NCBI GenBank assembly: GCA_016875735.1 | Contig: VGOW01000007.1 | Span: 5,844-69,843, forward strand | DNA: 64,000 bases | Direction: 5' to 3' | Origin: Chloroflexota bacterium | Lineage (GTDB): Bacteria > Chloroflexota > Anaerolineae > Anaerolineales > VGOW01 | Shown: one piece after another, positions 4,798 through 54,378 of the stretch | How the letters are laid out: every line of letters begins with the position of its first letter | Position numbering within the stretch: the stretch's first letter is position 1 | Position numbers and translations under genes: made by a program | The notes under the pieces: generated by a model | What the model saw: only the letters and a program-made list of their open reading frames with translations | Databases searched by the model: none | Told to the model about the DNA's origin: nothing

Positions 4798-4804
4798 CTC
4801 TTTT

Positions 4805-5581: not shown

Positions 5582-5584
5582 GAA

Positions 5585-6157
5585 ATGGAAACCGGCGACT
5601 CGACACGCGCCACACTGCTCATTCTCGGCGGCGGCCTGCTGATCGGGTTGACGATTGGCGCGCTCGTCCTCTTCGGCTTCCCCTCACTGCCGCCCGCCAC
5701 TGCGGGGGGAACGGCCTCGGGTGGGACGGCGGCTCCGTACACCGGCTCGCCCGCCCCCGACTTCACCCTCGAAAACATCAGCGGGCAAAAGATCACCCTG
5801 AGCAAATTGAAGGGCAAGCCGGTGCTAATCAATTTTTGGGCCACGTGGTGCGGCCCGTGCCGCATCGAAATGCCGGCCATCGAAGCCGCGCGCCAAAAAT
5901 ACAAAAGCGAAGGGCTCACCGTTCTCGCGGTGGGCGCCGACGAGCCATTGAAGGATGTGACTGCCTTCGTGAACGAGCTGGGGCTGACGTTCGAGGTGCT
6001 GATGGATCCCGGCCTCACCGTCAACGACATGTATCGCATTCAAGCCTACCCCACCAGTTTTTTCATCGGGCGCGACGGCGTGATCGCCTCTCTGCAAATC
6101 GGCTTGATGTCCGAGTCTCAACTCGAAGAAAATCTGGCGAAGATTTTGGCGAAATGA
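5585..6157 (+). CDS. TlpA/ResA-like membrane-anchored thioredoxin-fold thiol:disulfide oxidoreductase
   Basis: N-terminal TM anchor followed by a thioredoxin fold with NFWATWCGPC active site. It lies directly after ccdA. Confidence 0.85.
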   Translation: METGDSTRATLLILGGGLLIGLTIGALVLFGFPSLPPATAGGTASGGTAAPYTGSPAPDFTLENISGQKITLSKLKGKPVLINFWATWCGPCRIEMPAIEAARQKYKSEGLTVLAVGADEPLKDVTAFVNELGLTFEVLMDPGLTVNDMYRIQAYPTSFFIGRDGVIASLQIGLMSESQLEENLAKILAK

Positions 6158-18325: not shown

Positions 18326-20389
18326 TCACGGTCTGAACACCGGCATGGTCGGCTCACCGGTAGGCCACTTGCCGAACCAAGTAAGGATTTCGTCCGGTGG
18401 CTTCAATTGCTCCCACTCAGCCATGAACTCGGCGTAGGGCTTGCCGCGTTTTAGCCTGCTTTGACACTCGGCGTCGCGCCGGGCTTTAGTTGCTTCAACA
18501 TCCACACCTGCTCCGTCAGGCATGAGAACCACCTTGTAGATATTATCAACCACGCCCGCCGAGATTTTGTGCGTTGTGAAGTCCTGCCACACGCTCTGGG
18601 GGTCGCGCTCCAACGGATCGCCATACCCAGCACCGCCCGTGGCGAAACTCACGGTAATTACGTCACCATCGGCGACCGGGCGTGTAGTGCGCCCGAAGAA
18701 CTCCGAAACCCATTGGCCACCAATAGAATGATTCTGGAGCATATCTTGCAGGTCGAGCGTGATATCTGGCGCGCCGGCTTGCATCTTCTGCAGGATGTCC
18801 GCACTCAAAATGCTAATGCCCGGGACAGTGCAGGGCGCATAGCCGCCGAAAAGTGGTTGCGGAGTCTGTATCTTACTGTTGTCCGAAATTGTCGCAAAGA
18901 AAAGCGCTGGAACTTTGTGGTAACCGACCCAAAGTTGCGTCGTGCCCACACCGCCCCGGTACAAACCGTGCCCACAACTATCCTGCCAGTGTTGCGAGAA
19001 CGGGATGAATAGCGGGAACTCGTTCTCCATCGATTCGACGTTGGGCGCTCGGCCATACACGCACCACGGGAAGCCGAAGGCGTCGACGCCGTCCTGAAGC
19101 GCTCGCCCACCCTGCCCTTCGGTGTTGATCGAGTAGGCAAGCATGTCGGCGAAGGGTAATCCCCATTGCGATAACCCAGCAATGATCAATGCGTTCCCAG
19201 CATTGCCATGCGAAGCAGTCACCTGTTTCCACATCCCCGTGGGGAAGATGGCTTTGGCAAACACGTTGTGCATCGCACTCATCGCCCCAGTGGCAATCAT
19301 TACTGCATTGCTGGTAGCCGCACGGGCATCGGGATTCAGAACAATGCCGGGTGGGAACTTGAAGTCGATCGAAGCAAAGGTGGCACTACTAATAGGCAAA
19401 TCGTGGAAGATATATTCGTAAATGTAGTTCGACATGTGCCCCACAGCGGATTGCGCGTGGGTGTTGTAGGAGGAGTTGTTCTCCGGCGAGGTGCCCGTGA
19501 AGTCAAAGGTCAGCCGGTCGCCCTGCTTGATCATGGCCAAGGCGCACGACCGCACCAGGCCCTGCCGAGTGCCGAGCGCGTCGGCGAAGTGCACACTGCG
19601 ATACACCCCGTCGGGCCAGGCGGCGATACGCTGGCGGGCGCTCTGCTCCGCCGTTTCCAACATCTTGCGCAACAAACCGACGACGAAGTCCACACCGTGG
19701 CGCTCACACATTTCCACCACGCGTTGCCGGGCGCGCTCACAGCCCACGACGCGAGCCTTCAGATCGATCACAAACATCTGCGGCGCGCGGATGCCGTAAG
19801 CCGCCGTCATCTCCAAGATATCGTCACGTAGCACACCGTTCTCACCGATCTTGATAGGCGGCAGATTCATTCCCTCCTCAAATCTCGATGTTGCGCCTAC
19901 GGGCATCCCACCCGGCTCTATGGCGCCGGTTTCGGTGGTATGCACTGCCGCGCCCGCCCACGCCACTAACTTGCCGCCGTAGAAGATCGGCACGATGGCC
20001 AATTGATCGGGGTTATGGATGCCGCCGTACAGCGCGTCGTTGGTGTACCACACATCGCCATCTCTAATACCGGGATTCTCAGAGTAGTAGTGCAAGATGT
20101 ACTTGATAAGAATCGGCTGGATGATGGCGTGCAGGTAGGTACCGCAGGAGGCATTTGCCAAGTCACCAGCAGCAGTGAAGAGCGCCACCATCGAGTCGCC
20201 AGCAATGCCGATCGAACTGCGGGACGAGCGCATGAAGACCTCCATGGCTTCATCCAGCAGGTCGTTGGTTCGTTGCAGGCCGATCTCATACTGTCCGGCG
20301 CTGACGAGCTTGACACATGCTTGCTCGTTGCTAGTGGCCGGTTCTGGCTTGAGCCATTTCAGTTTCTGTTCAAGGGTTGGAATGGGCAT
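18326..20389 (-). CDS. Hydantoinase B/oxoprolinase-family subunit, acetone/acetophenone carboxylase catalytic-subunit-like
   Basis: 687 aa. HyuB-type GGAGYGDP motif near the C-terminal third and a long AcxB-like C-terminal extension. Confidence 0.85.
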   Translation of the reverse strand: MPIPTLEQKLKWLKPEPATSNEQACVKLVSAGQYEIGLQRTNDLLDEAMEVFMRSSRSSIGIAGDSMVALFTAAGDLANASCGTYLHAIIQPILIKYILHYYSENPGIRDGDVWYTNDALYGGIHNPDQLAIVPIFYGGKLVAWAGAAVHTTETGAIEPGGMPVGATSRFEEGMNLPPIKIGENGVLRDDILEMTAAYGIRAPQMFVIDLKARVVGCERARQRVVEMCERHGVDFVVGLLRKMLETAEQSARQRIAAWPDGVYRSVHFADALGTRQGLVRSCALAMIKQGDRLTFDFTGTSPENNSSYNTHAQSAVGHMSNYIYEYIFHDLPISSATFASIDFKFPPGIVLNPDARAATSNAVMIATGAMSAMHNVFAKAIFPTGMWKQVTASHGNAGNALIIAGLSQWGLPFADMLAYSINTEGQGGRALQDGVDAFGFPWCVYGRAPNVESMENEFPLFIPFSQHWQDSCGHGLYRGGVGTTQLWVGYHKVPALFFATISDNSKIQTPQPLFGGYAPCTVPGISILSADILQKMQAGAPDITLDLQDMLQNHSIGGQWVSEFFGRTTRPVADGDVITVSFATGGAGYGDPLERDPQSVWQDFTTHKISAGVVDNIYKVVLMPDGAGVDVEATKARRDAECQSRLKRGKPYAEFMAEWEQLKPPDEILTWFGKWPTGEPTMPVFRP

Positions 20390-20406
20390 GCTGTCACCTC
20401 GAATTC

Positions 20407-22524
20407 CTACTCCAGTATTCCCAGTTCATGCTGATTGATCGAGTAAATCAGACCGGGCGGGACAACGATGGTGGTGAATTGTGTTTCGACCAGTGCCGGC
20501 CCTTCTACAACGTTACCAGGTCGCAAGGCCATACCGTCATATACGTTCGTTTCGCGCAGATCGCCGTGCTCAGGCCAGAAAGCCAACCGCGAACCGCGCT
20601 GGGCATAGGCAGGGCTGGGACCTTCGAGTGCCCGGGTAGGCAGGTTAAGCTTAACCGTTGGCAGGACGGCTTTGAGCACGAAGTTGTCCACGTAAACACC
20701 ACCAGCGGGATTGACGACCAGTCGGCTGAAAGTCTCGGCGAATTCGCGCTCGAACTCGTCATAAATCGCACGGGCGTAGGCCTCGCCACGAATGAATAGT
20801 TCGGGCGACGATGTACGTTTGACTTGCACCTGACCGCCGTACAACATATCCAGTTCCAGTTGGAATATAGCCTGGTCCGGATCGAACCCTTCGCCTGCCA
20901 GATCGAGTTTGGCTACATCGATCAATGAAGTCACCACCGCGTTGAATTGATCCTGATCGACCACGAATTGCTGAGTGAATGGCTGGATGAACATCATGCG
21001 TTGCGATTTCTCATAGACATGGATGTTGTCCAGGATGGACGAGCCAAGCGCACAGAACACCGGCGAAAGCGGGAAGATGACGGCGCGCTTAATATCTTGC
21101 TTGTAGCCCGCTACGTGCGTGGGGCCTCCACCGCCAAAGGCAAAGAGCACAAAGTCATCTGGATTGTAGCCGCGCAGGTGTACTTCCTTGCGAATGGCCG
21201 AGGCCATATTGCCTTCCACGACCTGCCGGATGAGCCATGCGGCTTCATGCACGCTCACACCGAGCGGCCGAGCGATGTGTTGCTGGACCACCTGCTCGGC
21301 TTTTGCCTTGTCCAACTTCATCTTGCCGCCATAAAAGTAATCTGGATCTATGTAGCCCAACACTACATTCGCATCCGTAACCGTAGGTGCAGTGCCGCCA
21401 AGGTTGTAGCAGGCCGGGCCGGGCAAGGAACCTGCGCTCTGTGGACCCACCTCTAGCCGATTGCCTAGTGCCCGGTTGACTTTGGCGATCGAGCCGCCGC
21501 CTGCGCCGATGGAGAGCGTCTGCAACATGGTGATGCCCACCATCCATCGGTCGATGATCGGTCGGAACTCGTAGTTGCGCACTGCGTCCTGCACAATCAA
21601 GCCAATGTCGAACGAAGTGCCACCCACATCACTCGTGACAACATTGTGATAGCCAAGTTGTTTGGCGATGTGTTGCGCGCCGATCAGGCCCGCCACCGGG
21701 CCGCCATTGTAAGTTCGGCTGGCTGTGGTCTTGAATATCTCCGCAATGCCCCCCGAGTTGTGGATCATTTGGAATGAGCCACGATAACCCTTGTCGCGCA
21801 ACCTATCCCACATTGCCGATAGCTCGATCTGCATGGCGCGTTGAAGATAAGCATCAAGAACCGAGGTCATAGTGCGCTCATATTCGCCAAGCTTACCCAG
21901 CACCTCACTGGAAAGCACCACAGGCGCACTGCCAAGGTGATAATCTTTATATTCCTCGCGGATGATCTCCTTGACGCGTTGCTCGTGGGCAGGATTCACG
22001 AAAGACCACAAAAGCGAGACAACGAAGCCGCGCGCGCCGTTGTTGACCAGCCGATGGACTTTTGCTCGCACGTCAGCCTCGTCCATTGGGCGCACCACCT
22101 TGCCAGTAGAGTCCACACGTTCGCGCACCCCCACAATTAACTCCGGCGGGATGATGGGCATTGGCTTGTTCTGAACAGCCAGGTTCCGGCGTTCGGCAAC
22201 GCGCGTGCCGTCTACCCACTGTGCGCCGCGCCCGATCAGAATGGCGTCCTCGTGGCCCTCCGTGGTGATAAGCGCCAGGCGCGGACCGCTCCGCTCGATC
22301 AACCGGTTCATCGCGATCGTCGTCGAGTAGCGAATAATCTGGGTGTCGCCGAGCAACTGCTCTGCTGTCATGCCCGAGTTCTTGGCAGCCTCTTCGATGA
22401 CATTGAGGAAGCACACTGACAGATCGTAGGGTGTAGTCGGGGATTTTGCAGGCGTCACCGAGCCGTTGCGAGTAAGCACCAGATCGGTGAATGTTCCACC
22501 AACGTCAATATCAATGCTGTTCAT
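20407..22524 (-). CDS. Hydantoinase A/oxoprolinase-family ATP-binding subunit (paralogue 2)
   Basis: MNSIDIDVGGTFTDLVL (ASKHA phosphate-1 motif) and DVGGTSFDIGLI (second ASKHA half). 705 aa. Confidence 0.9.
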   Translation of the reverse strand: MNSIDIDVGGTFTDLVLTRNGSVTPAKSPTTPYDLSVCFLNVIEEAAKNSGMTAEQLLGDTQIIRYSTTIAMNRLIERSGPRLALITTEGHEDAILIGRGAQWVDGTRVAERRNLAVQNKPMPIIPPELIVGVRERVDSTGKVVRPMDEADVRAKVHRLVNNGARGFVVSLLWSFVNPAHEQRVKEIIREEYKDYHLGSAPVVLSSEVLGKLGEYERTMTSVLDAYLQRAMQIELSAMWDRLRDKGYRGSFQMIHNSGGIAEIFKTTASRTYNGGPVAGLIGAQHIAKQLGYHNVVTSDVGGTSFDIGLIVQDAVRNYEFRPIIDRWMVGITMLQTLSIGAGGGSIAKVNRALGNRLEVGPQSAGSLPGPACYNLGGTAPTVTDANVVLGYIDPDYFYGGKMKLDKAKAEQVVQQHIARPLGVSVHEAAWLIRQVVEGNMASAIRKEVHLRGYNPDDFVLFAFGGGGPTHVAGYKQDIKRAVIFPLSPVFCALGSSILDNIHVYEKSQRMMFIQPFTQQFVVDQDQFNAVVTSLIDVAKLDLAGEGFDPDQAIFQLELDMLYGGQVQVKRTSSPELFIRGEAYARAIYDEFEREFAETFSRLVVNPAGGVYVDNFVLKAVLPTVKLNLPTRALEGPSPAYAQRGSRLAFWPEHGDLRETNVYDGMALRPGNVVEGPALVETQFTTIVVPPGLIYSINQHELGILE

Positions 22525-22892
22525 GTCGCCACCTCAAGATGTCCTTCTTTGATGATCAATTCCTGCCGCGCCAACCGCGCTTTGAGGCCATCGAGGTCAA
22601 TTTCGATATCGTGAGTCAATGGATGGCCGGGGGGCAGATACTCGGTTTCGAGTTGTGTGCCGCATTGAGGGCAGTAAAACTCTATGATCCGAATCCAAGC
22701 CGGGTCGGGCGCAAAGTTGTATTCGGCCTCAATCAGTGGTGAGTGTATCTCGCGTGGATCACGATTGTGGATCAAGCAACCCTTCTTATAGTTCTCGCGG
22801 GCGCTCACCAGAGCATGTCCACAACGATTGCAGCGCCACATTTCGTCGGCCAGGTCCAGGTCGATGCTTTCTGTCATACGGATGCGGCTCAT
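22521..22892 (-). CDS. Acetone-carboxylase gamma-subunit-like Cys4 zinc protein
   Basis: MWRCNRCGH...FYCPQCGTQLETEY gives two CxxC pairs in a 123-aa protein. RBS TAGGAGAAA lies 7 nt upstream of the ATG. The gene has an ATGA overlap with the next gene. Confidence 0.8.
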   Translation of the reverse strand: MSRIRMTESIDLDLADEMWRCNRCGHALVSARENYKKGCLIHNRDPREIHSPLIEAEYNFAPDPAWIRIIEFYCPQCGTQLETEYLPPGHPLTHDIEIDLDGLKARLARQELIIKEGHLEVAT

Positions 22893-22902
22893 CTCATTTC
22901 TC

Positions 22903-24852
22903 CTATCTTGTCAATTTACCATTGCCAAACTCATCCACCTGCAATTGCCAGGCTGGGCCGATCAGGTAGGTTGTTTGGGCGCTCTCGGCAATGGCAGGAC
23001 CGGCCACGTGGTTGCCAGGCTTCAGGCTCTCCCATATGTAAACCGGTGTGTCGATGGCTTGCCCGTTCCAGCGCACTTGGCGGCTGCCAGTTTTGGCCGA
23101 CAACGCATCCGCACTGCCCAATTGGCTGGGCACTGGCTCTTGGCCTCCCACTGCATAACTCGCCCGCAGGCGCGCCAGTTCGAGAGTGCCTTCGCCAATC
23201 GCTTTCTTCAGCCCAGCGCGATCCAGATGGCTGATCGGCAAGGACGCGGTCGTGATCTTGCCTGACGTCTCGCGCACATCCAATTCCAACATGAGCTGTG
23301 CCTTGGCCAAATCGAGTTCCTCCCCGGCCAGATCGCGGTTAGCCTCTGCGCGCATCGCAGAGATCGCCTGCTCAAGTCTCGTGAGCCCTGTCTCATCAGC
23401 CTTCGCCATTAGCGCGTGTTCATAAACATGCAAGATGTCTGCAAGCGATGAGCCAAGCACACTGAACACCGGCCCAAGGTTAAACACGTAGGCGCATTTC
23501 AGTCCAAGTTGCTCCGCCAGGCTGGTGGCGAAGATAGGCCCATTGCCGCCAAAGGCGAACAAGATGTAGCCGGAGGCTGACTCCCCAGTAGCATTGAGCC
23601 GCTTCTGAATGCCCTCGGCTGCCATTCCCACTGCGCACTGGGCAATGCGTGCCGCTGCTTCTTCTGTGCTACAACCAAGCGGTTTGGCGATGTGTGTTTC
23701 GATGGCTTCGCGGGCACGATCCTTATTGAGCATACGTGCACCACCGAGGAAATTGAGGGGGTTCAGGTAACCCAACAGAAGCGCCGCGTCGGTCAATGTG
23801 GCTTCTGCACCGCCCACGTCATAGCACGCCGGGCCAGGATATGCTCCCATGCTCTCGGGGCCAAGCGTGACCTTGCCATCTTTTGCCCGCGCCACACTTC
23901 CACCGCCAAGCGCAAGTGAGGCCACATCGGGCATCGGTATTTGGAGCGAGATGCCGAAGATGTCCGGTCGGCGGTTAAGGGCGGGCACGCCGTTTTGAAT
24001 GAAACTGATTTTCGTCGTGGTGCCGCCCACGTCGAGGGCAATGACATGCGAGTGATTCTGGCGGCGGGCAAAGTGTGCGCTAGCATACAGCCCCATAGTC
24101 GGGCCTGACTCGATCGTATCTACCGCGCGCGTCTTCGAGACGCGGGCAACGCCGCCATTTTGATGGCCGATAAGCAACCAGCGCTTCCAACCGTGCTGGT
24201 CGCGCAAAATGTCTTCAGCTTTGAATAGCGTGCTGGCAAGCGGCCCATGAACGTAGGCGTTAATGAGGGTGACGTGCGTGCGCGTCATGTCGTCGGGGTG
24301 CTTGCAAATGTCGCTACCGAGCAGAACGGGCACCGAGCCGAGGTAATGGTCTGGATACTGGCGGTTGACAATAGTCTGCAATTGCCGCTCGGCCCCTGGG
24401 TTGGCAAATGCCCCACTTAGGCTAATGCACACACGGCGCACGCCACGCTCCAGGAGACTCTTGACTAGACCCAGCACCACGTGCGGATCTGCAGTTTGAG
24501 GCAGACCCAATACACCGCCCTCGCCAGCCAATTCTAGTGCCGGGCTGGGGCCGTCGCCGGAATACAGGTCATGTTCGTGGCCTTGCGAGACAAGCAGTCC
24601 AAGCCGGGGCCCACGACGTTCGGCCAATACATTGGTGGTGACGGTGGTAGACCAGCGAATGAGCTGCGTTTGCCCAAGGAGCGCGGCCAGATCTGGCAAG
24701 CCTAGTTGGTCGGATCCGGCTTGCAGGCAGTCGAGGAAGCAAACAGTCAGGTCGTGGGGGGTGGTATCTACCTTCACTGGTGTCATATGGCGGCCCTCGG
24801 TAAACAAGCCGTCAGTGAAGGTTCCACCAACATCAATGTCAATTGTGTACAC
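22903..24852 (-). CDS. Hydantoinase A/oxoprolinase-family subunit (paralogue 1)
   Basis: VYTIDIDVGGTFTDGLF and LDVGGTTTKISFI motifs. Start reassigned to GTG 24852, preceded by AAAGGAGG (RBS) 7 nt upstream. The ORF-track Met at 24912 adds 20 unsupported codons. Confidence 0.85.
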   Translation of the reverse strand: MYTIDIDVGGTFTDGLFTEGRHMTPVKVDTTPHDLTVCFLDCLQAGSDQLGLPDLAALLGQTQLIRWSTTVTTNVLAERRGPRLGLLVSQGHEHDLYSGDGPSPALELAGEGGVLGLPQTADPHVVLGLVKSLLERGVRRVCISLSGAFANPGAERQLQTIVNRQYPDHYLGSVPVLLGSDICKHPDDMTRTHVTLINAYVHGPLASTLFKAEDILRDQHGWKRWLLIGHQNGGVARVSKTRAVDTIESGPTMGLYASAHFARRQNHSHVIALDVGGTTTKISFIQNGVPALNRRPDIFGISLQIPMPDVASLALGGGSVARAKDGKVTLGPESMGAYPGPACYDVGGAEATLTDAALLLGYLNPLNFLGGARMLNKDRAREAIETHIAKPLGCSTEEAAARIAQCAVGMAAEGIQKRLNATGESASGYILFAFGGNGPIFATSLAEQLGLKCAYVFNLGPVFSVLGSSLADILHVYEHALMAKADETGLTRLEQAISAMRAEANRDLAGEELDLAKAQLMLELDVRETSGKITTASLPISHLDRAGLKKAIGEGTLELARLRASYAVGGQEPVPSQLGSADALSAKTGSRQVRWNGQAIDTPVYIWESLKPGNHVAGPAIAESAQTTYLIGPAWQLQVDEFGNGKLTR

Positions 24853-25044
24853 GATTGATGACCTCCTTTGAGGGAACTTGGAGTCCGGTACGGAGAGGCA
24901 AATTCTGCGCACCTATCCGAAGGATAAGTTGGAGTTCTCTCCTAAATCATACAAGGAGGACAAAGTTGGGCGTGAGGGACGAAAGGAGAATTTCCGAGCA
25001 GAGTCGACTCGTCCGAGTGCGACTTTAGTCGTACGACTGGCAGC

Positions 25045-28400: not shown

Positions 28401-28421
28401 GACTCTGTGCGATATTGGCGT

Positions 28422-28818
<397 letters not shown>

Positions 28819-28893
28819 ACACCGACTCCATCATAGCATGGAACGCGCCGCGTTTTCTTCTCTGATAGAATAGCCGCATCAAGGAGCAGCCCC

Positions 28894-30306
28894 ATGAACA
28901 CAAACTCCCGCTCGCGCTGGCCCATCGCCGTTGCCGCACTCACACTCGGAATCGTCGCCTGCACCTGTGGCGGACTCGGCAACGCCGCGCCGACTCCCAC
29001 ACCGGCCTCGCCGCCCACACCCACACCGCCGCCCGCCGAAATTGCCGCCCCCACCAAACCACCCATCATCGGCGAAGGCACGGGCGGCGGCGGCGGACTC
29101 TCCATCATCAACGCCGTCGCCGCGCCGCGCAGTGATGGCGGCTGGCGGCTCATGGGCGAAGTCGCCAACAACTCCGACTCCGCCGCCAGCAGCCTCAGCC
29201 TCAACATCGAATGGTTCGATTCCAGCGGCGCATCGCTCGGCTCCGACACCGGCTACATTCTCACCACCAACGTTGCCCCCGGCGAATCCTCTCCCTTCCT
29301 CTACAACATTTACGATGCCGGAGTTCCGGTAGCCTCCTTCGCCGCCGAAGTCACCGAGTTCACCACCCTTCAAGATTTATCCCGCGCTTCCTTCGACATC
29401 GAACACGCCGTGCTCACCGTCGATGAATTCGGCGACTTCCACTGCACCGGCGAATTGGTGAACAACGGATCCGTGTCGGCCTCCCTCGAAGGACTCGCCG
29501 CCGCCATCGTCGACAGCAGCGGGGCGCTTGTCTCCGCCGATTCGTATTGGGCCGTCGCCCGGCATCTCGAACCCGGCGCGCGCACCCCCTTCCGAATCTC
29601 GCCACTCGGATTCAGCGGCGCGGCCGCCTCCGCCTACTCGTGCTCCGTTTACGTGGACGCCGTCACCGCCGACCCCATCGGCCTCAGCCCTGTAGCCTTT
29701 GTGGACACCAACGGCGATGGCGACAACGGCAACGACATCCTCTTCTACATTGACGCATTCGGCTCCAGCCATCTCGTCGGCGAGATCACCAACAATGGCA
29801 GTGAGCCAATGGCCGTGCAGCTCATCGCCGGGCTGTACAACGCCAACGGCGAGACCATCGACGCCGACTTTGCCAGCGCGCCCATCGCCCTCGATCCCGG
29901 CCAAACACTTCCCTTCGACTTCACCACCCTCTCGGCCATCAACTATAACGAAGCCCTGCGCGGCGAAGTATCGCGCTTCTTCGTGCTGATCGATCCGTTC
30001 TGGACTTTCCCCACTTTCACTCAGCAAGTGCAGCTCCAGCCGCAGAACGGCTCGGCCAGCAACGACAACGGCACGGTCGTCGAAACGGTGGACATCTTCA
30101 ACGATCAAACATTCAACGTTGACTATGCCTATGTGCTGGTCAAAGTCACCGATGCCTCCGGACAAGTCGTGGGGTATAGCTTCACCAGCACCGACCCCAT
30201 CACCGCCGGAGCGTCGGTAAGCGCCAGCGTCACATTGTATGTTGATCCCGCGCTCGATCCGTCAACCCTCACCGTCACCGTCACCGCATACGCCCTCAAA
30301 CCATAA
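28894..30306 (+). CDS. Lipoprotein with four tandem beta-rich (CARDB/FxLYD-like) repeats
   Basis: Lipobox LTLGIVAC followed by a PT-rich linker. Then four ~90-100-aa repeats, three carrying GE[VLI]xNN[SG] (GEVANNS, GELVNNGS, GEITNNGS), with PG..xPF in repeats 1-3. Confidence 0.7.
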   Translation: MNTNSRSRWPIAVAALTLGIVACTCGGLGNAAPTPTPASPPTPTPPPAEIAAPTKPPIIGEGTGGGGGLSIINAVAAPRSDGGWRLMGEVANNSDSAASSLSLNIEWFDSSGASLGSDTGYILTTNVAPGESSPFLYNIYDAGVPVASFAAEVTEFTTLQDLSRASFDIEHAVLTVDEFGDFHCTGELVNNGSVSASLEGLAAAIVDSSGALVSADSYWAVARHLEPGARTPFRISPLGFSGAAASAYSCSVYVDAVTADPIGLSPVAFVDTNGDGDNGNDILFYIDAFGSSHLVGEITNNGSEPMAVQLIAGLYNANGETIDADFASAPIALDPGQTLPFDFTTLSAINYNEALRGEVSRFFVLIDPFWTFPTFTQQVQLQPQNGSASNDNGTVVETVDIFNDQTFNVDYAYVLVKVTDASGQVVGYSFTSTDPITAGASVSASVTLYVDPALDPSTLTVTVTAYALKP

Positions 30307-30380
30307 CCGATCACTGCTCCTCGCCGCCAACCCCTTCACGAAGTTCGCGCGCGCCGCGAACTTCGCGAATCGCTCTCCCA

Positions 30381-33300
30381 ATGCGCCGCCTCATCGCTCC
30401 GCTGGCAGTCACCCTCTTTGCCCTCTTTGCCGCGCAGCCCCTCTTCACCGCCCAGCTCACCTGCTCCGACGATAGCGCCTTCCACATTGGCCGCGCGGTG
30501 ATGCTGGAGCAGTTGATCGACTCCGGCCATTTTTTTCCCCGCTGGTCGCCGCACATGGCGCACGGCTATGGTTATCCATTCTTCAATTACTACGGCGCAC
30601 TGTCGTCATACCTTCTCGTTGCCCTGCACAAACTCGGCTTCATCTATCCGCTCGCCCTGCACATCGCCTTCGGCCTCTGCCTGTGGCTCGCCGGGTTGTC
30701 AACCTACGCCTTCGTTCGCGAGTGGTGCGGCGATGCCGCCGGAGTCGTTTCTGCCGTTGCCTACATCACAGCGCCTTACTTTGCTTACGATCTCCTCTTT
30801 CGCGGCAACCTCGCCGAATCGCTCGCCCTCGCCCTCCTGCCGCTCGCCCTCTTTACCCTCCATCGCTCGGTGAACTCCAAACCTCAAACCCCAAACTCCC
30901 AACCAATTTTTGAAGTTGGGAGTTTGAAATTTGGATTTTGGAATTTGCTCGCCTCCGCGAGCCTTGCCGCCCTCCTCTACACCCACAACGCCACCTCGTT
31001 GGCCGCCGCCCCTCTCTTCATCGGATACGTCGCCCTCATTGCATATCTTCATCGGGATCCGCGCGCGCTCCTTCGCGGTGGGCTGATCCTTCTGCTCGGC
31101 CTCGCCCTCTCCGCCGCCTTTTGGCTCCCCGCCCTCGCCGAGATCAACCTCGTCCAAACCGACCGCCTCCTCGTCCCGCCCATCTTCACTTATTACACAA
31201 ATTACCTCTCGCCCGCCGAATTACTCGCCCCGCCCATCCCCATCGATCCGCTTCTCATCAATCCATCGCCCGCCAAAGCGCTCGGGCTCGCCACCGCCAT
31301 CCTTGCCATCATCGGCCTCATCGCCCTTCTGCGCCGCACCCCTTTGAAGTTTGAAGTTTGGAGTTTGCCCTTTGGCTTTTTCTTCGCCACATTCCTCCTC
31401 ACTTACGCCGCCCTCACCCTCGCCCCCTCGCGCCCTCTATGGGACACCGTCCCCCTGATCAAATTCATCCAATTCCCGTGGCGCTTCCTCGGCCCGACAA
31501 CATTGTGCGCCGCCGCCCTCGTCGGCGCCGGAGTCCACTGGCTATCCAATCGTCAATGGCTGGCCGCTGGCTTCATCGCCGCTGTCATCTCCATCGGCAA
31601 TCTTTCGTGGTGGTATCCGCGCTACTGTGTCGGCTTCACCGAATCCACTCTCGCCGATATTCTGAAATTCGAATACGACTCCGCCACCATCGGCACCACT
31701 GCCAAAGGCGAATATCTCCCGCGCACCGTTCGCGCCGTTCCCGGCGACGAGGGCATTGCTCAAGCATGGATGCGCGGCGAACCGCCGCAATACATTACCG
31801 GCCTCCCCTCGGACTCGACACTCACCATCGTTCATCCCGATCCGCTCGACTACCGCGCAACCGTCACCGTGTCCGCGCCCATCACCCTCACCTTCAACCA
31901 ATTCTTCTTTCCCGGCTGGACGGCGACTCTCGACAACCGCCCCGCCGACATCACCCTCACCGCCGACACCGGACTCATCACCGTGCGCGTCCCCGCTGGC
32001 GCACACGAACTGCGCTTCCGCTTCGGCAACACACCCCTCCGCGCCATCGCCGCAGCCATTTCAATCATCGCTCTTGCATATCTAGCATTCAGCATTCAGC
32101 GCTCAGCGTTCAGCGTTCAGCATTCCGCGTCCAGCATTCCGCATTCCGCATTCAGCATTCCGCATTCCGCATTCGTCATCCTCCCCCTCGCCCTCATCCT
32201 CCTCCGCCCTCTCATCATCGACCGCACCATCAATCCCCTCCGCCGCTCGTCATTCGACGACCCAACGATCACCATCGGCCAGCCCGTCAACGCCAACTTC
32301 TCCAGCGGCCTCACCGCGCTCTCCGTCGAGTTTCCGTCCCCCGTCGCTTCCGGCGCCGAGTTCGACGTGACTCTTTACGCCGCGCCGCGCACGCGCATCG
32401 AAAACGACTATCGCCCTCGCTTCGATGTCGTCTCTGCCGACGGATTGATTTGGAACAACGGCGCCGACTCGCTTCCCCCGCGCTGGCATCGCGAGCCGCC
32501 CGGCACGCAATACTGGCCGGTGGGGCAATACGCACAGTGGGCGCGGCGCGAAATGATTCTGCCCGGCACGCCGCCCGGGGATTATGAACTCGCCGCCACC
32601 ATTTTCGATCTTGCTACCCTCGCGCCCGACAGCGTGATCGACACCGACGGCAAGGCGCTCGCGCCCGTCGCCGCGCTCGGAACGATTCACATCACCCGCC
32701 CCGCCGCCCCGCCCGATCCCGCCGACCTCAACATCGAGCGCCGCGTCGATCACGACTTCGGCCCGATCACGCTTCTCGGCTACAACCTCGACCGCGCCGA
32801 AGCCCGCCCCGGCGACGCCGCCCTCATCACCCTCTTCCTCCGCGCCGACGATGCGATGCTCGCAAACTTAAAGTTCAATCTGTTCGATCCGGCCTACCCC
32901 ACGTCGGAATGGTTGCCGGGCGATGTGTGGCGGTTCCAGATTCTGAAACGCATCCCGGCAGAGGCGGAGTCCGGCCCGTTTCGATTCAACTTGAGTCTCG
33001 CCGACTCTGACTCTCGATCCATCGATCTCGCCCCTATTATCCTCACTGCGCCCGACCGCGTTTTCGATCCGCCCCTCATCGGCAACCGGACTGCGATTCG
33101 GTTCGGCGACTCGATCCGACTCGCCGGATACGACCTCACGACGACCGACGCGCTGAACATCATTCTGTTGTGGCGCGCGCTCGCCACGCCCGATTCCGAT
33201 CTCATCGCCTTCATTCACATCGAAGATGTGTCGGGGCAAGTCGTGGCGCAGTCAGACGCCGTGCCCGCCAATTGGAGTCGGCCCACCACCGGCTGGCTGG

Positions 33301-33452
33301 CGGGCGAATACATTCTCGATCCGCGCGCGCTGCCCGCGCTGCCATCCGGCGAATACACGATCTTCGTCGGCCTCGCCGACCGAATCACCGGCGCGCGCTT
33401 GCCCACCGCCGAGGGCGACCGCGCCATGGTTGGGGTTTACAAAGCGCCGTGA
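30381..33452 (+). CDS. Large polytopic membrane protein, GT-C-like / COG5617-like (putative glycosyltransferase) with soluble C-terminal half
   Basis: 1023 aa. N-terminal about 13 TM with the FHIGRAVMLEQLIDSGHFFPRWSPHMAHGYGYPFFNYYG motif, which I recall from YfhO/PTPS-related membrane proteins. It contains three in-frame simple-repeat insertions. Confidence 0.7.
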   Translation: MRRLIAPLAVTLFALFAAQPLFTAQLTCSDDSAFHIGRAVMLEQLIDSGHFFPRWSPHMAHGYGYPFFNYYGALSSYLLVALHKLGFIYPLALHIAFGLCLWLAGLSTYAFVREWCGDAAGVVSAVAYITAPYFAYDLLFRGNLAESLALALLPLALFTLHRSVNSKPQTPNSQPIFEVGSLKFGFWNLLASASLAALLYTHNATSLAAAPLFIGYVALIAYLHRDPRALLRGGLILLLGLALSAAFWLPALAEINLVQTDRLLVPPIFTYYTNYLSPAELLAPPIPIDPLLINPSPAKALGLATAILAIIGLIALLRRTPLKFEVWSLPFGFFFATFLLTYAALTLAPSRPLWDTVPLIKFIQFPWRFLGPTTLCAAALVGAGVHWLSNRQWLAAGFIAAVISIGNLSWWYPRYCVGFTESTLADILKFEYDSATIGTTAKGEYLPRTVRAVPGDEGIAQAWMRGEPPQYITGLPSDSTLTIVHPDPLDYRATVTVSAPITLTFNQFFFPGWTATLDNRPADITLTADTGLITVRVPAGAHELRFRFGNTPLRAIAAAISIIALAYLAFSIQRSAFSVQHSASSIPHSAFSIPHSAFVILPLALILLRPLIIDRTINPLRRSSFDDPTITIGQPVNANFSSGLTALSVEFPSPVASGAEFDVTLYAAPRTRIENDYRPRFDVVSADGLIWNNGADSLPPRWHREPPGTQYWPVGQYAQWARREMILPGTPPGDYELAATIFDLATLAPDSVIDTDGKALAPVAALGTIHITRPAAPPDPADLNIERRVDHDFGPITLLGYNLDRAEARPGDAALITLFLRADDAMLANLKFNLFDPAYPTSEWLPGDVWRFQILKRIPAEAESGPFRFNLSLADSDSRSIDLAPIILTAPDRVFDPPLIGNRTAIRFGDSIRLAGYDLTTTDALNIILLWRALATPDSDLIAFIHIEDVSGQVVAQSDAVPANWSRPTTGWLAGEYILDPRALPALPSGEYTIFVGLADRITGARLPTAEGDRAMVGVYKAP
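30875..30947. repeat. Heptad-periodic palindrome inserted in-frame in a CDS
   Basis: ctccaaa cctcaaa ccccaaa ctcccaa ccaattt ttgaagt tgggagt ttgaaat ttggatt ttggaat. The perfect 12-bp core caaactcccaac (30892..30903) pairs with gttgggagtttg (30915..30926). It encodes SKPQTPNSQPIFEVGSLKFGFWNL. Confidence 0.8.
31343..31375. repeat. Half-element of the same word family (ttgaagt/ttggagt) inside the CDS
   Basis: tttgaagtttgaagtttggagtttgccctttgg encodes PLKFEVWSLPFG. Its words match the right arm of the 30875..30947 element. Confidence 0.6.
32085..32175. repeat. 13 tandem degenerate heptamers (AGCATTC/CGCATTC) inside the CDS
   Basis: agcattc agcattc agcgctc agcgttc agcgttc agcattc cgcgtcc agcattc cgcattc cgcattc agcattc cgcattc cgcattc. 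It is translated with a 7-aa period (FSIQRSA FSVQHSA SSIPHSA FSIPHSA). Confidence 0.85.
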
Positions 33453-39741: not shown

Positions 39742-40212
39742 GTGGCTACTGAGTATATTCGCAATGCGCTTGACACGACACCCAATGCTTCTATACTTTC
39801 TCCATGTTCCTGTTCTACTTTTCAATCGGCCTCGCCGTCGGCCTCCACTGCGCTGTATCACCTCTTTCAGAAAATCACTCCTGCCAATGCAAACCCGCCG
39901 CTCGCGCTGATCGTCACCTACCTCTCCGCGGCGATCATTTGTCTCGGCCTGTTTCCATTCTATCCGTTGAAGAACGGACTCGGCGCGGCGGTGCGGCAAT
40001 TGAATTGGGCCAGTGTGGGGTTGGAAGTCGGCTTCCTGTTGGCGTATCGGTCGGGCTGGAACATCAGCCTCGCGGCCATCGTCGCCAACGCCGCCGTGGC
40101 GCTGATCCTCGTTCCGCTCGGTCTGCTGTTCTTCAAAGACAAAGTGACGCCGATCAATCTCGTGGGCGTCCTCGTGTGCATCGTCGGTTTGGTGATGGCA
40201 AACTTGAAGTAA
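39742..40212 (+). CDS. Small DMT/EamA-like 4-TM membrane protein; 5' end ambiguous (possible frameshift)
   Basis: The ORF-track frame (GTG 39742) gives ...TALYHLFQKITPANANPPLALIVTYLSAAIICLGLF...INLVGVLVCIVGLVMANLK, which is EamA-half-like. The hydrophobic N-terminus MFLFYFSIGLAVGL is encoded from ATG 39804 in another frame. See the corresponding finding. Confidence 0.55.
   Translation: MATEYIRNALDTTPNASILSPCSCSTFQSASPSASTALYHLFQKITPANANPPLALIVTYLSAAIICLGLFPFYPLKNGLGAAVRQLNWASVGLEVGFLLAYRSGWNISLAAIVANAAVALILVPLGLLFFKDKVTPINLVGVLVCIVGLVMANLK
39770..39797 (+). promoter_or_regulatory. Near-consensus promoter predicting a leaderless transcript starting at ATG 39804
   Basis: TTGACA (39770..39775), a 16-nt spacer, then TATACT (39792..39797). 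The A of ATG 39804 is the 7th nt after the -10 element. Confidence 0.55.
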
Positions 40213-40231
40213 ACCCATAAGGAGGATCATC

Positions 40232-41911
40232 ATGTCCAAAGTGAATCGGTTGTTATCCGCCGCGCTGGTTGTCGCGGCCATCGTCTCTGCCTGCGGGGGA
40301 GGAGGCGGCGCGGCCACGCAAGCGCCCGCCGCCACCGAAGGCCCGGCCATCGTGCGCCTTGGTTGGGCCGGCAGCCCCGACACGCTGAACCCCGGCGCGG
40401 CGGTGCTCTCCGAAGCGTATACGATTTTTGCTCTCGTGTACGACTCGCTCTATGAGTTTCAACTCGACGGCACGTACAAGTTGGGCGTGGCCGAGAGCGC
40501 GGATGTTTCGGATGACGGTTTGACGTGGACGTTCAAGATTCGGTCGGGCGTCAAATTTCACGACGGCCAACCGATGACGGCGAAAGATGTGGCCTTCTCG
40601 CTCAACCTCTACAAGAGCCACGAAGACTTTCCCTATCTCAACACGTATACGTATAGCTTCGAATCCATCGAAGCGCCCGACGACTCCACCGTAGTCATCA
40701 CGCTCACCGGGCCGGTGCCCAATATCGACTACCTGCTGTCGTACCTCTACATCCTGCCCGAACATGTGTGGAGGGATCATGCCGAAGGATCGGCGGCGGC
40801 GGAGTTCGAGAATGCGGAAATGATCGGCACGGGGCCGTTTGCGGTGAAGGAGTACAAGCAGAACGAGTTCGTTCACCTCGTCGCCAACAAAGATCACTTC
40901 CTCCAACCGCCGAAGATCGACGAAGTCGTATTTCAAACCTTCGAGAATCAAGATGCGCTGGTGCAGGCGATCAAGACCGGGCAGGTGGATATGATCACCG
41001 AGATGCCCAAAACCGCCGCACCGACTCTGCGCAACGAACCCAATGTGAAGTTGGTGACCGGCGCGCCGTTCTCGCCGGATGTATCCGACATCATCTTCAA
41101 TCAGGTAGCGCCGGAGAACTGCCCAAAAGATGCCGGAGGCGTTTGCACCGGCCACCCTGCTCTGCGTGACCGTAACGTGCGTCTCGCGCTCGCTCATGCC
41201 ACCGACAAAAAGAAGATCATCGACGTGGTTCTTCTCGGCCTCGGCGATCCCGGCCTCACCCTTATCCCCAATGGACTCGGGCGCTGGTACAACAACTCGT
41301 TGGCCGATTATGGCTATGATGTCGCAAAGGCAAAGCAAATCCTCGACGATGCTGGTTACAAAGACATCGATGGCGACGGCGTGCGTGAAATGCCCGACGG
41401 CGCCAACCCCCTCATCTTCCGCATGAACTGGCCGAGCGACAGCACCAACGCGCCGCGCATGGCCGAACTGCTCTCGCAGATGTGGCTGGAAGTGGGCGTG
41501 AAGACTGAACTGCAAGCGCAAGACCCCGACGCGCTCACCGCCGTTTGTTGCCCGGCGTTCGACTTCGACGTGATCCTCTGGGGCTGGGGCTCCGACCCCG
41601 ATCCCAACCTTCTGCTGGGGGTGATGACCACCGAGCAGATCCCGACCGGCAGCAGTGAAACCGGTTACTCGAACCCGGCCTACGACGATCTCTTCGCCCA
41701 ACAGTCGGTGGAACTCGATTCGGCGAAGCGCAAAGACATCGTGTGGCAGATGCAGAAGATCGCGCACGACGACGTGGTTTACATCATCCCCTTCTACGCG
41801 CAAGAGGTGCAGGCCTTCCGCACCGACCGCTTCGGCGGATGGATCACCGACGCGGGCAAACTGGCGCTGGAAGATGTGAGTTCGCTGGTTGTGATCGAGC
41901 CGGTCAAGTGA
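40232..41911 (+). CDS. ABC transporter substrate-binding lipoprotein, family 5 (peptide/nickel, OppA/DppA-like)
   Basis: Lipobox AAIVSAC plus a Gly-rich linker. Family-5 SBP-like sequence throughout (e.g. TWTFKIRSGVKFHDGQPMTAKDVAFS). Confidence 0.9.
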   Translation: MSKVNRLLSAALVVAAIVSACGGGGGAATQAPAATEGPAIVRLGWAGSPDTLNPGAAVLSEAYTIFALVYDSLYEFQLDGTYKLGVAESADVSDDGLTWTFKIRSGVKFHDGQPMTAKDVAFSLNLYKSHEDFPYLNTYTYSFESIEAPDDSTVVITLTGPVPNIDYLLSYLYILPEHVWRDHAEGSAAAEFENAEMIGTGPFAVKEYKQNEFVHLVANKDHFLQPPKIDEVVFQTFENQDALVQAIKTGQVDMITEMPKTAAPTLRNEPNVKLVTGAPFSPDVSDIIFNQVAPENCPKDAGGVCTGHPALRDRNVRLALAHATDKKKIIDVVLLGLGDPGLTLIPNGLGRWYNNSLADYGYDVAKAKQILDDAGYKDIDGDGVREMPDGANPLIFRMNWPSDSTNAPRMAELLSQMWLEVGVKTELQAQDPDALTAVCCPAFDFDVILWGWGSDPDPNLLLGVMTTEQIPTGSSETGYSNPAYDDLFAQQSVELDSAKRKDIVWQMQKIAHDDVVYIIPFYAQEVQAFRTDRFGGWITDAGKLALEDVSSLVVIEPVK

Positions 41912-41995
41912 TTGCAGAGTGTTGATTTCGGATTGCAGATTGAAGAACGCAACCGCCTTCAATCTGCAATCTGCGATCTGAAATCGCAAATCCGA
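41910..41995. repeat. Heptad-periodic inverted repeat filling the SBP/permease junction
   Basis: gattgcagattgaag (41931..41945) pairs perfectly with cttcaatctgcaatc (41957..41971). The arms are runs of GATTNNN and NNNAATC heptamers. The right arm ends at ATG 41996. Confidence 0.85.
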
Positions 41996-43033
41996 ATGAA
42001 ACGCTATCAACTTCTAGTCAGCAAAGTCGGCTGGTCGCTGTTCACCGTCCTCTTCGTCATCGTCCTCAACTTCTTTCTGTTCCGCGTGCTGCCCGGCGAT
42101 CCCTCGCGCGCCGGTGTGCGCGACCCGCGATTGACGAAAGAGGCGCAGGAAGCTATCCGCGTGCGCTTCGGCCTCGACAAACCGATCATCAACTGCTTCA
42201 CGACTCTCAACCCCCTTAAACTCGCCCCCGAAACGTGCGCGGTCAACCCGCTCGATACTCAATTCTTCATTTACATTGGCAATCTTATTCGCGGCGAGTT
42301 GGGCATCAGCTTCCACACCAACCGCCCCGTGGCCGGCATCCTCCGCGAACGGCTGGGAAACACCATCCTGCTCATCGGCGCCGGGCAGATTCTCAGCATC
42401 GTGCTCGGCATCGCCATCGGCGTCGTCGCCGCGTGGAAGTCGCGCACCGTGGTCGATTACACTGCGCTCGTTTCCAGCCTCGTCGCGTGGAGCATGCCCA
42501 CCTTCTGGCTGGGTATCATATTGCTGTTCTGGGGCAGTCGCGATCTCGGCTTGCCCATCGGCGGGCAGGTCACGGTGGGCACGACCTATGCCACCGTTTG
42601 GGATCGCTGGCTCGACATCGGGCGGCACATGCTCCTGCCCACGCTCACCCAAACCATCATCTACGTCGCCGAGTATGTGCTCATCATGCGCTCCACCATG
42701 CTCACCGTGCTCTCCGAAGATTACATTCTCACCGCCAAAGCCAAAGGTCTCAGCACGTTCCAGATTCTCAAAGACCACGCCTTGCGCAACGCCGCTCTGC
42801 CCATCGTCACCATCGTCGCCCTCAACCTCGGCTTCACCGTCGCCGGAGCAATCCAAATCGAATCCGTGTTCTCGTGGCCCGGTCTCGGCCAAGCCACCTA
42901 CGAAGCCGTTGTCCGCCGCGACTATCCGTTATTGCAGGGCGCGTTTCTATTGCTGGCCGTCAGCGTCATCATTGCCAACTTGATCGCAGATTTGCTTTAT
43001 TCATATCTCGACCCCCGCGTGCAAACATCATAG
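41996..43033 (+). CDS. ABC transporter permease (OppB/DppB-like)
   Basis: MKRYQLLVSKVGWSLFTVLFVIVLNFFLFRVLPGDP and the EAA-loop region (YILTAKAKGLS...ALRNA) are typical of BPD_transp_1 peptide permeases. Upstream codons of the ORF-track version are repeat-encoded. Confidence 0.9.
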   Translation: MKRYQLLVSKVGWSLFTVLFVIVLNFFLFRVLPGDPSRAGVRDPRLTKEAQEAIRVRFGLDKPIINCFTTLNPLKLAPETCAVNPLDTQFFIYIGNLIRGELGISFHTNRPVAGILRERLGNTILLIGAGQILSIVLGIAIGVVAAWKSRTVVDYTALVSSLVAWSMPTFWLGIILLFWGSRDLGLPIGGQVTVGTTYATVWDRWLDIGRHMLLPTLTQTIIYVAEYVLIMRSTMLTVLSEDYILTAKAKGLSTFQILKDHALRNAALPIVTIVALNLGFTVAGAIQIESVFSWPGLGQATYEAVVRRDYPLLQGAFLLLAVSVIIANLIADLLYSYLDPRVQTS

Positions 43034-53410: not shown

Positions 53411-54118
53411 TCACTGCCCAAGCGCCGCGTCGATCAGTCGTTGAAACTCGCTGAAGTCCAACGGATTCTGCACTCGCTGGTTGTTGACGAAAATGGTAGG
53501 GGTGCTGGTCACGCCCATCGCGCGAGCCAGTTGCTCGTCTTCGCGCACGGCGGCGGCGTATCGGCCAGAGTCAAAGCACGAATTGAACGTCCCCGCGTCC
53601 AGCCCGATCGAGTCGGCGAACGCTTTTAGTCGGCGCGGGGCGAATGCGCCCTCGCCTTCGCCGTTCCAATTGGCGAACACCATCTTGTGGTAATTCCAAA
53701 ACTCGCTTTGCTCGTTGGCGCACTGGCTGGCCTCGGCGGCGTCGCGCGACTCACTGCCGCCCACGTTCCCATCAACGACAATGTAGTGACGATATTCGAA
53801 ACGAACCTGCCCGGTTGCAACGTATGTATCGATGATCTGACGTTCCACGTCAGTGGCAAATTGCCGACAGAACGGTCACTGGAAGTCGGAGAACTCCAGA
53901 ATCACTACCCGTGCATCTTTGGGGCCGAGCGCTTTGCCCTCGGCCATCGGCCACGTCTCTTTTTCGATGGTCGTGATCTCGCCGATGGGGCGCGTGTTCT
54001 GATACACCAAAAAGCCAGCGGCGGCCACTGCCACCAGCGCCACTCCGGCAATCACCATCCACCGCCGTTGGCGGGCCTCCTGTTGGCGCTTCCGTCTCAA
54101 TTCTTCGCGTTTGCTCAT
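53411..54118 (-). CDS. Membrane-anchored DsbA-like (Thioredoxin_4) oxidoreductase with in-frame TGA at the CxxC position (candidate selenoprotein, or pseudogene)
   Basis: ORFs 53876..54118 and 53411..53848 are in the same frame. Read-through gives ...VVILEFSDFQ-[TGA 53878..53876]-PFCRQFATDVERQIIDTYVATGQVRFEY.... TGA therefore replaces the first Cys of the canonical EFSDFQCPFC context. Confidence 0.6.
53837..53853 (-). promoter_or_regulatory. Candidate bacterial SECIS-like hairpin downstream of the in-frame UGA
   Basis: On the mRNA, the hairpin CUGACG-UGGAA-CGUCAG (6-bp perfect stem, G in the loop) starts 22 nt after the UGA. Confidence 0.35.
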
Positions 54119-54378
54119 GTGTCTCTCCTGAAGTGAAAGTATGGGGCCGAGTGTCGCGCGAGGTCGAAACCGGCCCCTGTGACATTACGTGGATGATAGA
54201 AGCCGAACCCGCCGCGCTCCAGTGACGTTCTTCCCAAATTGAAAACGAAGTATGTACTCAATGAACTCTGTCATGAGATTGAATGATGTTTCTCACTTTC
54301 TTTATCCACTATGAATTCCTAAACTGAAATCGCCGATGATCGTTTGCTCATCGCAATCATGTTCATGAAGGAGTCCTG

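Follow-up and report, generated by a model that had tools for sequence, protein, structure and literature searches.

DsbA-like selenoproteins, which carry selenocysteine (Sec, U) in a UxxC motif, were first reported from the Sargasso Sea metagenome, where nine sequences were found (Zhang, Fomenko and Gladyshev 2005, PMC1088965). They were later found in 41 of ~5200 bacterial genomes (Peng et al. 2016, PMC5029168), and a 2026 review lists the family as 'DsbA-like protein form 1' (PMC13188914). The gene described here lies on the minus strand of a 64-kb stretch of DNA from a Chloroflexota bacterium of the order Anaerolineales (64,000 nucleotides of contig VGOW01000007.1, assembly GCA_016875735.1), the whole of which is called the window. 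It is split by a UGA codon at 53878..53876 into two open reading frames (ORFs). Very probably this UGA is recoded as Sec, and the two ORFs are one intact gene for a membrane-anchored, extracytoplasmic oxidoreductase of the DsbA/BdbD type with the active-site motif U81-P-F-C84.

With DsbA-like form 1 (PF01323, UxxC) the window gene shares the DSBA/Thioredoxin_4 fold, a candidate Sec in place of the first Cys of CxxC, a small hairpin downstream of the UGA with a G in its apical loop, and widespread Cys homologues. It differs in belonging to an orthologue group of the Anaerolineales whose members begin with a basic head and a single transmembrane (TM) anchor (MSKRE...), and in that the hairpin of this group stands at a fixed register, where it is encoded by T-(D/G)-(V/A)-(E/G)-R-Q. 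The likeness is drawn from family features, not residue by residue with published examples (e.g. NIP15863.1). At the level of sequence, the gene has all the features by which the form 1 family is recognised, and UxxC DsbA-like selenoproteins as such are already known.

A second described family, NF041057, is curated as the Rcas_1661 family thioredoxin-like (seleno)lipoprotein, after a gene name of Roseiflexus castenholzii (Chloroflexi), and has members of the Sec type and of the Cys type. Among NCBIfam models it matches the window protein best (E = 2.1e-37; residues 61-231 on model positions 80-246 of 247), but the match covers the catalytic domain only. With 129 bits against a family cut-off of 190, the window protein is related to NF041057 without being a member of it. 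The members of NF041057 are described as lipoproteins, whereas the window protein is anchored by a TM segment.

The closest solved structure is that of Bacillus subtilis BdbD (PDB 3eu3; E = 2.5e-19, residues 60-232), and other solved DsbA-like relatives come from Gram-positive bacteria and actinobacteria (4pwp/4pwo, 7unn, 3bci, 4jr4/4k6x). Shared with the BdbD type are a helical domain inserted into an extracytoplasmic thioredoxin fold, a CPxC motif and a cis-Pro TPT loop, but all of the solved relatives use Cys. BdbD also has a partner, the membrane oxidase BdbC, and no BdbC, DsbB or VKOR partner was found among the Pfam-annotated genes of the window; one may be encoded elsewhere in the genome. 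In its fold, as assigned from sequence, its CPxC-type site, cis-Pro loop and anchor, the predicted product fits the features of a BdbD/DsbA-type extracytoplasmic thiol oxidase.

A single reading frame interrupted at the catalytic cysteine

Positions 54118..53411 of the minus strand form one frame of 708 nt, with 235 codons and the TGA at 53878..53876 as the sole internal stop (Table 1); the coordinates, the frame and the split into two ORFs given in a first-pass annotation of this DNA were all correct. The upstream ORF runs for 80 codons from the ATG at 54118, encodes a basic head and a single hydrophobic segment, and ends ...ARVVILEFSDFQ. Its N-terminus, MSKRE..R..RQ, is common to the orthologues in the alignment, and from the N-terminal anchor the catalytic domain is predicted to lie on the outer side of the membrane. 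After the TGA come nine sense codons (PFCRQFATD) and then the GTG at 53848, from which ORF callers start a 145-aa ORF that ends at the TGA 53413..53411. Read through the internal stop, the translation is EFSDFQ-U-PFCRQFATDVERQ.

When Cys is put for the stop, the product matches the Pfam families Thioredoxin_4 (PF13462; E = 4.4e-33, 115 bits against a cut-off of 23.2) and DSBA (PF01323; E = 3.2e-18, 66.7 bits against a cut-off of 25.6), the matches spanning residues 62-231. The interrupted column is Cys in all 119 full-length homologues among the best 120 database hits, where the motif reads CP[FYINVAG]C, CSFC or CTAC. Thus the stop does stand at the first Cys of a CPFC-type motif, as had been claimed. 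Two further cysteines, Cys133 and Cys181, probably form a second, structural disulfide.

Of the 69 gene-like ORFs in the window 37 end in TGA, more than in any other stop codon, and TGA also ends the gene itself. The genetic code is standard, and the earlier statement that there is no global recoding holds.

The two ORFs could instead be taken at face value, as genes for two separate products: an 80-aa membrane peptide, and a 145-aa cytoplasmic DsbA-fold domain that starts at the GTG 53848 and lacks CxxC. Gene-calling pipelines give exactly these two ORFs, both here and in ~46 relatives. However, the nine codons from the TGA to the GTG are conserved as coding sequence (P-F/Y-C-x-x-F-A-x-x), with the resolving Cys invariant, and the GTG itself lies inside the loop and stem of the conserved hairpin considered below. 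Nor does the GTG have a Shine-Dalgarno sequence, no site upstream of it being comparable to the one that precedes the ATG at 54118, and a DsbA fold with neither an active-site motif nor an export signal has no evident function. Two separate products are very improbable on these grounds.

Four overlapping terminator-like matches, each a G+C-rich stem followed by TTTTTGG, lie inside the TM-anchor coding region (54013-54038, minus strand). Most likely they arise from the Ala/Val/Gly-rich hydrophobic segment and the Phe-Leu codons after it, and do not mark a real terminator.

The TGA is shared by related genes

The 145-aa product is also present in five other contigs, from five different JGI samples, with at least 99.8% identity to the window and the same 80 + 145 split. 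An error of sequencing or assembly at one base of a TGC or TGT codon, for which there was never more than a prior possibility, is excluded because these five independent assemblies carry the same TGA. Diverged relatives from other projects carry it too, and error can be given no credence at all. The five JGI contigs are one population, and alone they cannot separate a selenoprotein from a pseudogene.

The pseudogene alternative, raised in the first-pass annotation, is that a TGY-to-TGA nonsense mutation in a Cys-type gene truncated the product after 80 residues and left the remainder to decay. One base change would be enough, full-length database homologues are mostly Cys-type, and the Sec machinery was not found in the 64-kb window. 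Against this stand the more distant relatives. When a protein database was searched with the 154 C-terminal amino acids, downstream of the TGA, ~46 of the best 120 clusters were products of 141-147 residues starting (V/M)ERQ, which is the same split. The nearest relatives in this set are of the split type, at 75, 74 and 73% identity, and the best Cys-type relative stands at 70%.

The DNA was read for four relatives: L209-211, L212 (from the NCBI metagenome-assembled genome GCA_040961345.1), L213/214 and L216/217. Each of the four, and L044 as well, carries TGA at precisely this codon and is otherwise free of internal stops and frameshifts. In L209-211 the gene order is also that of the window, with genes for Rrf2, a GAF-histidine kinase, a response regulator and a CBS protein, then the split gene, alanine dehydrogenase, acetyl-CoA hydrolase and an HD protein. 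Thus many orthologues carry the TGA, including the closest ones with the same gene neighbourhood, and in a rough neighbour-joining (NJ) tree the window gene lies inside a clade in which 21 of the 22 genes are TGA-type.

Metagenome contigs were also scanned with the back-translated motif F-x-D-F-Q-TGA-P-x-C (TTYNNNGAYTTYCARTGACCNNNNTGY). Among the matches listed (at least 121), 119 are DsbA-like: their homology extends to either side of the TGA, and the ORF downstream of it runs for ~145-165 codons. Since 119 of the 121 listed matches are of this kind, TGA at the catalytic position is a widespread and maintained state. The scan of genome contigs gave only Cys-type relatives, at no more than 55% identity.

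One metagenomic contig (L096) carries a tandem pair of TGA-type DsbA-like genes, at 5073 and 5747 on the plus strand. Each has its own hairpin, with different stems, UUGGCG/CGCCAA and UCGACG/CGUCGA.

Selective constraint before and after the TGA

By pairwise Nei-Gojobori estimates, the TGA-bearing genes are under strong purifying selection both upstream and downstream of the TGA. Between the window gene and L209, the ratio of non-synonymous to synonymous substitution rates (dN/dS) is 0.158 upstream and 0.142 downstream, at a dS of ~1.1; other TGA-bearing pairs are similar, with downstream values of 0.14-0.2. Because dN/dS is ~0.15 on both sides at a dS of ~1.1, the gene cannot have been dead ever since these lineages parted from their common ancestor. 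A check for other decay found none, either in the window copy or in its TGA-bearing relatives.

Selection also seems to act below the level of the protein. Between the window gene and L209, codons for the same amino acid are identical at a fraction of 0.94 in codons 81-97, as against 0.56 elsewhere in the gene, and the most conserved 45-nt stretch of the entire gene starts two codons after the UGA. To judge from this codon usage, synonymous sites around the hairpin are constrained.

The idea of a nonsense mutation is not borne out by these results. It would have to accommodate the same TGA in orthologues at a dS of ~1.1 or more, intact apart from that codon and under constraint downstream of it, as well as the ~46 clusters with the same split, the clade made up almost wholly of TGA-type genes, and the conservation of the hairpin and its synonymous sites. 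We therefore consider a pseudogene extremely unlikely, and an intact gene in which the UGA is read as Sec by far the better account.

A conserved hairpin downstream of the UGA

The published consensus for the bacterial Sec insertion sequence (SECIS; bSECIS for the bacterial element) has an apical loop of 3-9 nt with a G within the loop's first two nucleotides, typically N1-G-[G/U]-N-N2 with pairing of N1 and N2 (PMC13188914). The same consensus gives an upper stem of 4-16 bp, a spacing of 16-37 nt between the UGA and the loop, and a minimum free energy of -7.5 kcal/mol or below (PMC13188914). The window hairpin agrees on every point. Its loop is UGGAA at 53847..53843 (5 nt; or GGA), which fits N1-G-[G/U]-N-N2, the stem is 6-7 bp, the spacing is 28-29 nt and the free energy is -7.5 to -8.6 kcal/mol. 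From the UGA it is 22 nt to the start of the stem and 28 nt to that of the loop, so that the hairpin sequence and position first described, the G in the loop and the suggested fit to bacterial SECIS geometry all stand. The hairpin is far shorter than the E. coli fdhF SECIS.

A hairpin in the same register is found in 18 further TGA-type metagenomic genes, those most similar to the window gene. In the alignment of these with the window, all 19 sequences form standard pairs at each of the six stem positions, and neither of the two loop Gs varies. Three of the six pairs vary by compensatory double substitution, and no one-sided change is seen. An Asp codon GAC always occurs with an Arg codon CGU (8 sequences) and a Gly codon GGC always with an Arg codon CGC (11 sequences), a covariation that ties a non-synonymous site to a synonymous one; L213 and L216 have a G-U intermediate at the covarying pair. 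The observed covariation score, which is not corrected for phylogeny, was reached in none of 500 shuffles.

The hairpin also distinguishes TGA-type from Cys-type genes, although not completely. In the 57 nt after the codon, the median hairpin strength is -11.6 kcal/mol for TGA-type genes (n=113), as against -6.8 kcal/mol for Cys-type genome homologues (n=88; Mann-Whitney p ~1e-15, uncorrected for relatedness). Cys-type genome homologues have at most four of the six pairs in the same register, and the Cys-type NJ sister, L215, has none of the six; the Cys-type DNA comparisons leave out the control P0007. It is because of these comparative data, not because of single-sequence evidence, that the hairpin can be placed above chance.

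A small upstream helix, GGCA/UGCC, predicted by ViennaRNA, was considered as part of the element and rejected: it is only 67% paired across the relatives and does not covary.

Other subfamilies of TGA-type DsbA-like genes (L006-L125, 60 nt after the TGA) have different conserved hairpins. One is GAGGGUCG-GUC-CGACCCUC, starting ~15 nt after the UGA; in another, CUCGAGC-AGGU-GCUCGAG stands ~31 nt after the UGA; and GCCCU-CGGGCC-AGGGC is the third. One protein family thus seems to include several SECIS classes.

Decoding of the UGA

A number of observations weigh against Sec insertion at this codon. The hairpin is not exclusive to TGA-type genes, since the Cys-type homologue L207 has a perfect one, and of the six pairs five are present in the syntenic Cys orthologue L206 and four in L208. 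The hairpin is partly a by-product of the peptide T-(G/D)-x-x-R-Q in G+C-rich codons, and a hairpin that complies with the consensus follows ~2% of all window positions. Folding of the region as a single sequence gives z = +0.35, which is not significant, and neither the covariation nor the hairpin statistics are phylogeny-corrected. Rfam, searched at gathering thresholds over the whole window and at E-values up to 10 over 53780..53900, gave no SECIS family and only a chance snoRNA match. As for the machinery, selA, selB and selD were absent from the window genes covered by Pfam (~40 ORFs) and by precomputed annotation of 43-59 kb, and ARAGORN found no tRNA in the window. In all 215 fetched sequences ARAGORN found ordinary tRNAs only and no tRNA-Sec, and selA, selB, selD and tRNA-Sec were not found in the ~1.1 Mb of fetched loci. 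Chloroflexi do include users of Sec, with three selenoprotein families reported (PMC1794560). When the fetched DNA was searched by tblastn with approximate sequences of SelD and SelB from E. coli, two weak matches to GTPase domains were all that appeared; with such queries this is a weak negative.

The L207 gene (597-1343; P0094, CPGC) reads GCT GGC GCG GGT CGC CAG at the hairpin, with six of six pairs, and is identical there to the TGA-type genes L019 and L093. Its hairpin may be a 'fossil' SECIS left by a switch from Sec to Cys, or a pre-adapted site.

If no Sec machinery were involved, the UGA might be read through with a standard amino acid, by near-cognate tRNA-Trp or tRNA-Cys at a leaky UGA-C, perhaps with stimulation by the hairpin. 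The machinery was seen neither in the window nor in the fetched loci, and a C follows the UGA; in E. coli, termination at UGA-C is weak. Such read-through could in principle be promoted by a conserved hairpin downstream. On the other side, the recoded site is exactly the catalytic Cys in the CxxC of a thioredoxin fold, which is where Sec classically stands and where Trp would abolish activity, and the size, spacing and GG loop of the hairpin are those of bacterial SECIS elements. The family is already established as a selenoprotein family, and we know of no case of hairpin-stimulated Cys insertion at UGA in bacteria. Read-through with a standard amino acid is thus left with a slim chance.

Insertion of Sec at the nucleophilic Cys position with the help of a downstream SECIS, as proposed in the first-pass annotation, is supported by the conserved TGA, the selection on the gene and the covarying hairpin. 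In the established bacterial Sec pathway, SelB with GTP and Sec-tRNA(Sec) would bind the mRNA hairpin at 53853..53837. This would bring Sec to the ribosome at the UGA 53878..53876, in competition with release factor 2 (RF2). The second UGA, at 53413..53411, has no hairpin partner and would terminate translation. The nucleophile would then be the selenocysteine of U-P-F-C in an outward-facing enzyme of the DsbA/BdbD type, with a presumed role as an oxidase.

Proposed exchange of Sec and Cys in the Anaerolineales

An intact gene of this kind implies that the organism makes selenocysteine, for which it would be expected to carry selA, selB, selC and selD, and that it puts Sec into an exported disulfide-bond catalyst. 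The gene adds to a known pattern and involves no new mechanism. The consequence for annotation is more immediate. The gene and at least ~46 related clusters are split into an 80-aa 'hypothetical' protein and a 145-aa 'protein-disulfide isomerase', a division that conceals an intact selenoprotein and leads to an undercount of selenium use among Anaerolineales from freshwater and sediment.

On the rough NJ tree, with 44 TGA-type and 125 Cys-type clusters, there are ~9 changes between Sec and Cys; neither this tree nor the hairpin data prove the direction of any such switch. The chances seem about even that the DsbA/BdbD group of the Anaerolineales is a large lineage that to date appears in annotation solely as split ORFs, with repeated switching between Sec and Cys, a SECIS embedded in the peptide T-(D/G)-x-x-R-Q, and some Cys genes that keep the hairpin. 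If this is true, the group would be a natural system for studying the gain and loss of Sec sites. Orthologues of the Sec and the Cys type, some of them with the hairpin, together provide a data set on which Sec/Cys exchange can be studied.

Features of the locus

Table 1. Features of the interrupted DsbA/BdbD-like gene and its surroundings (window coordinates)
Feature	Coordinates	Strand	Basis or remark
Complete gene, membrane-anchored DsbA/BdbD-like thiol-disulfide oxidoreductase (proposed)	53411..54118	-	235 codons including one in-frame UGA (putative Sec81), then terminal TGA
Shine-Dalgarno-like AGGAGAG before ATG 54118	54123..54129	-	Read from sequence; putative functional role
N-terminal transmembrane anchor, residues 20-39 = WMVIAGVALVAVAAAGFLVY, after basic head MSKREELRRKRQQEARQRR	54002..54061	-	Translation; predicted topology
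In-frame UGA at nucleophilic Cys of CxxC, proposed selenocysteine codon U81	53876..53878	-	Homologue column and TGA-bearing relatives
Codon TGT of resolving Cys84 in U-P-F-C motif	53867..53869	-	C84 invariant in alignment A1
bSECIS-like hairpin CUGACG(U)-GGA-(A)CGUCAG	53837..53853	-	Consensus fit and conservation in relatives
Cys133 codon	53720..53722	-	Invariant in alignment A1 together with Cys181
Cys181 codon, putative partner of Cys133	53576..53578	-	Invariant in alignment A1
Thr206-Pro207, cis-Pro loop of thioredoxin fold, facing active site	53498..53503	-	Invariant in A1; aligns with TPT of BdbD
Terminal stop, also TGA	53411..53413	-	Read from sequence

Gene neighbourhoods and other features of the window

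In the genome assembly GCA_040961345.1, the TGA-type orthologue lies directly upstream of a cytochrome c maturation cluster (L212, 10001-19240), which comprises genes for CcmE, a 682-aa ORF, CcmH, a ResA-like redoxin, a multihaem cytochrome c and CcmA/B/C. This neighbourhood hints at a functional link between the DsbA-like protein and cytochrome c biogenesis. In L213 (1590-9440) and L216 (1591-9440) the gene adjoins those for a formate transporter and a 51K-type subunit of NADH dehydrogenase. A neighbouring gene in both encodes a 956-aa molybdopterin formate-dehydrogenase-like protein as one uninterrupted ORF, and this protein is apparently not of the Sec type.

No other in-frame TGA selenoprotein candidate was found among the coding-like ORF pairs of the window; adjacent pairs in the same frame are separate genes, for example those for SBP_bac_5 and a permease at 40208-43033. 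Another thiol-related pair lies at 4778-6157 on the plus strand. Its first ORF (4778-5581) encodes a membrane protein of the DsbD_TM/CcdA type and the second, directly after it (5582-6157), a thioredoxin-like protein of the AhpC-TSA/Redoxin type. Neither ORF is disrupted or has an in-frame TGA, and the pair resembles a reducing thiol pathway such as serves in cytochrome c maturation.

The sole Rfam family in the window is the bacterial RNase P RNA class A, at 28419-28817 on the minus strand (235.7 bits). Adjoining it, at 28837-33452 on the plus strand, are two long ORFs, of 489 aa and 1068 aa, that look coding and have no Pfam match at E ≤1e-5. A hydantoinase/oxoprolinase cluster at 18326-24912 on the minus strand has one B subunit and two A-type paralogues.

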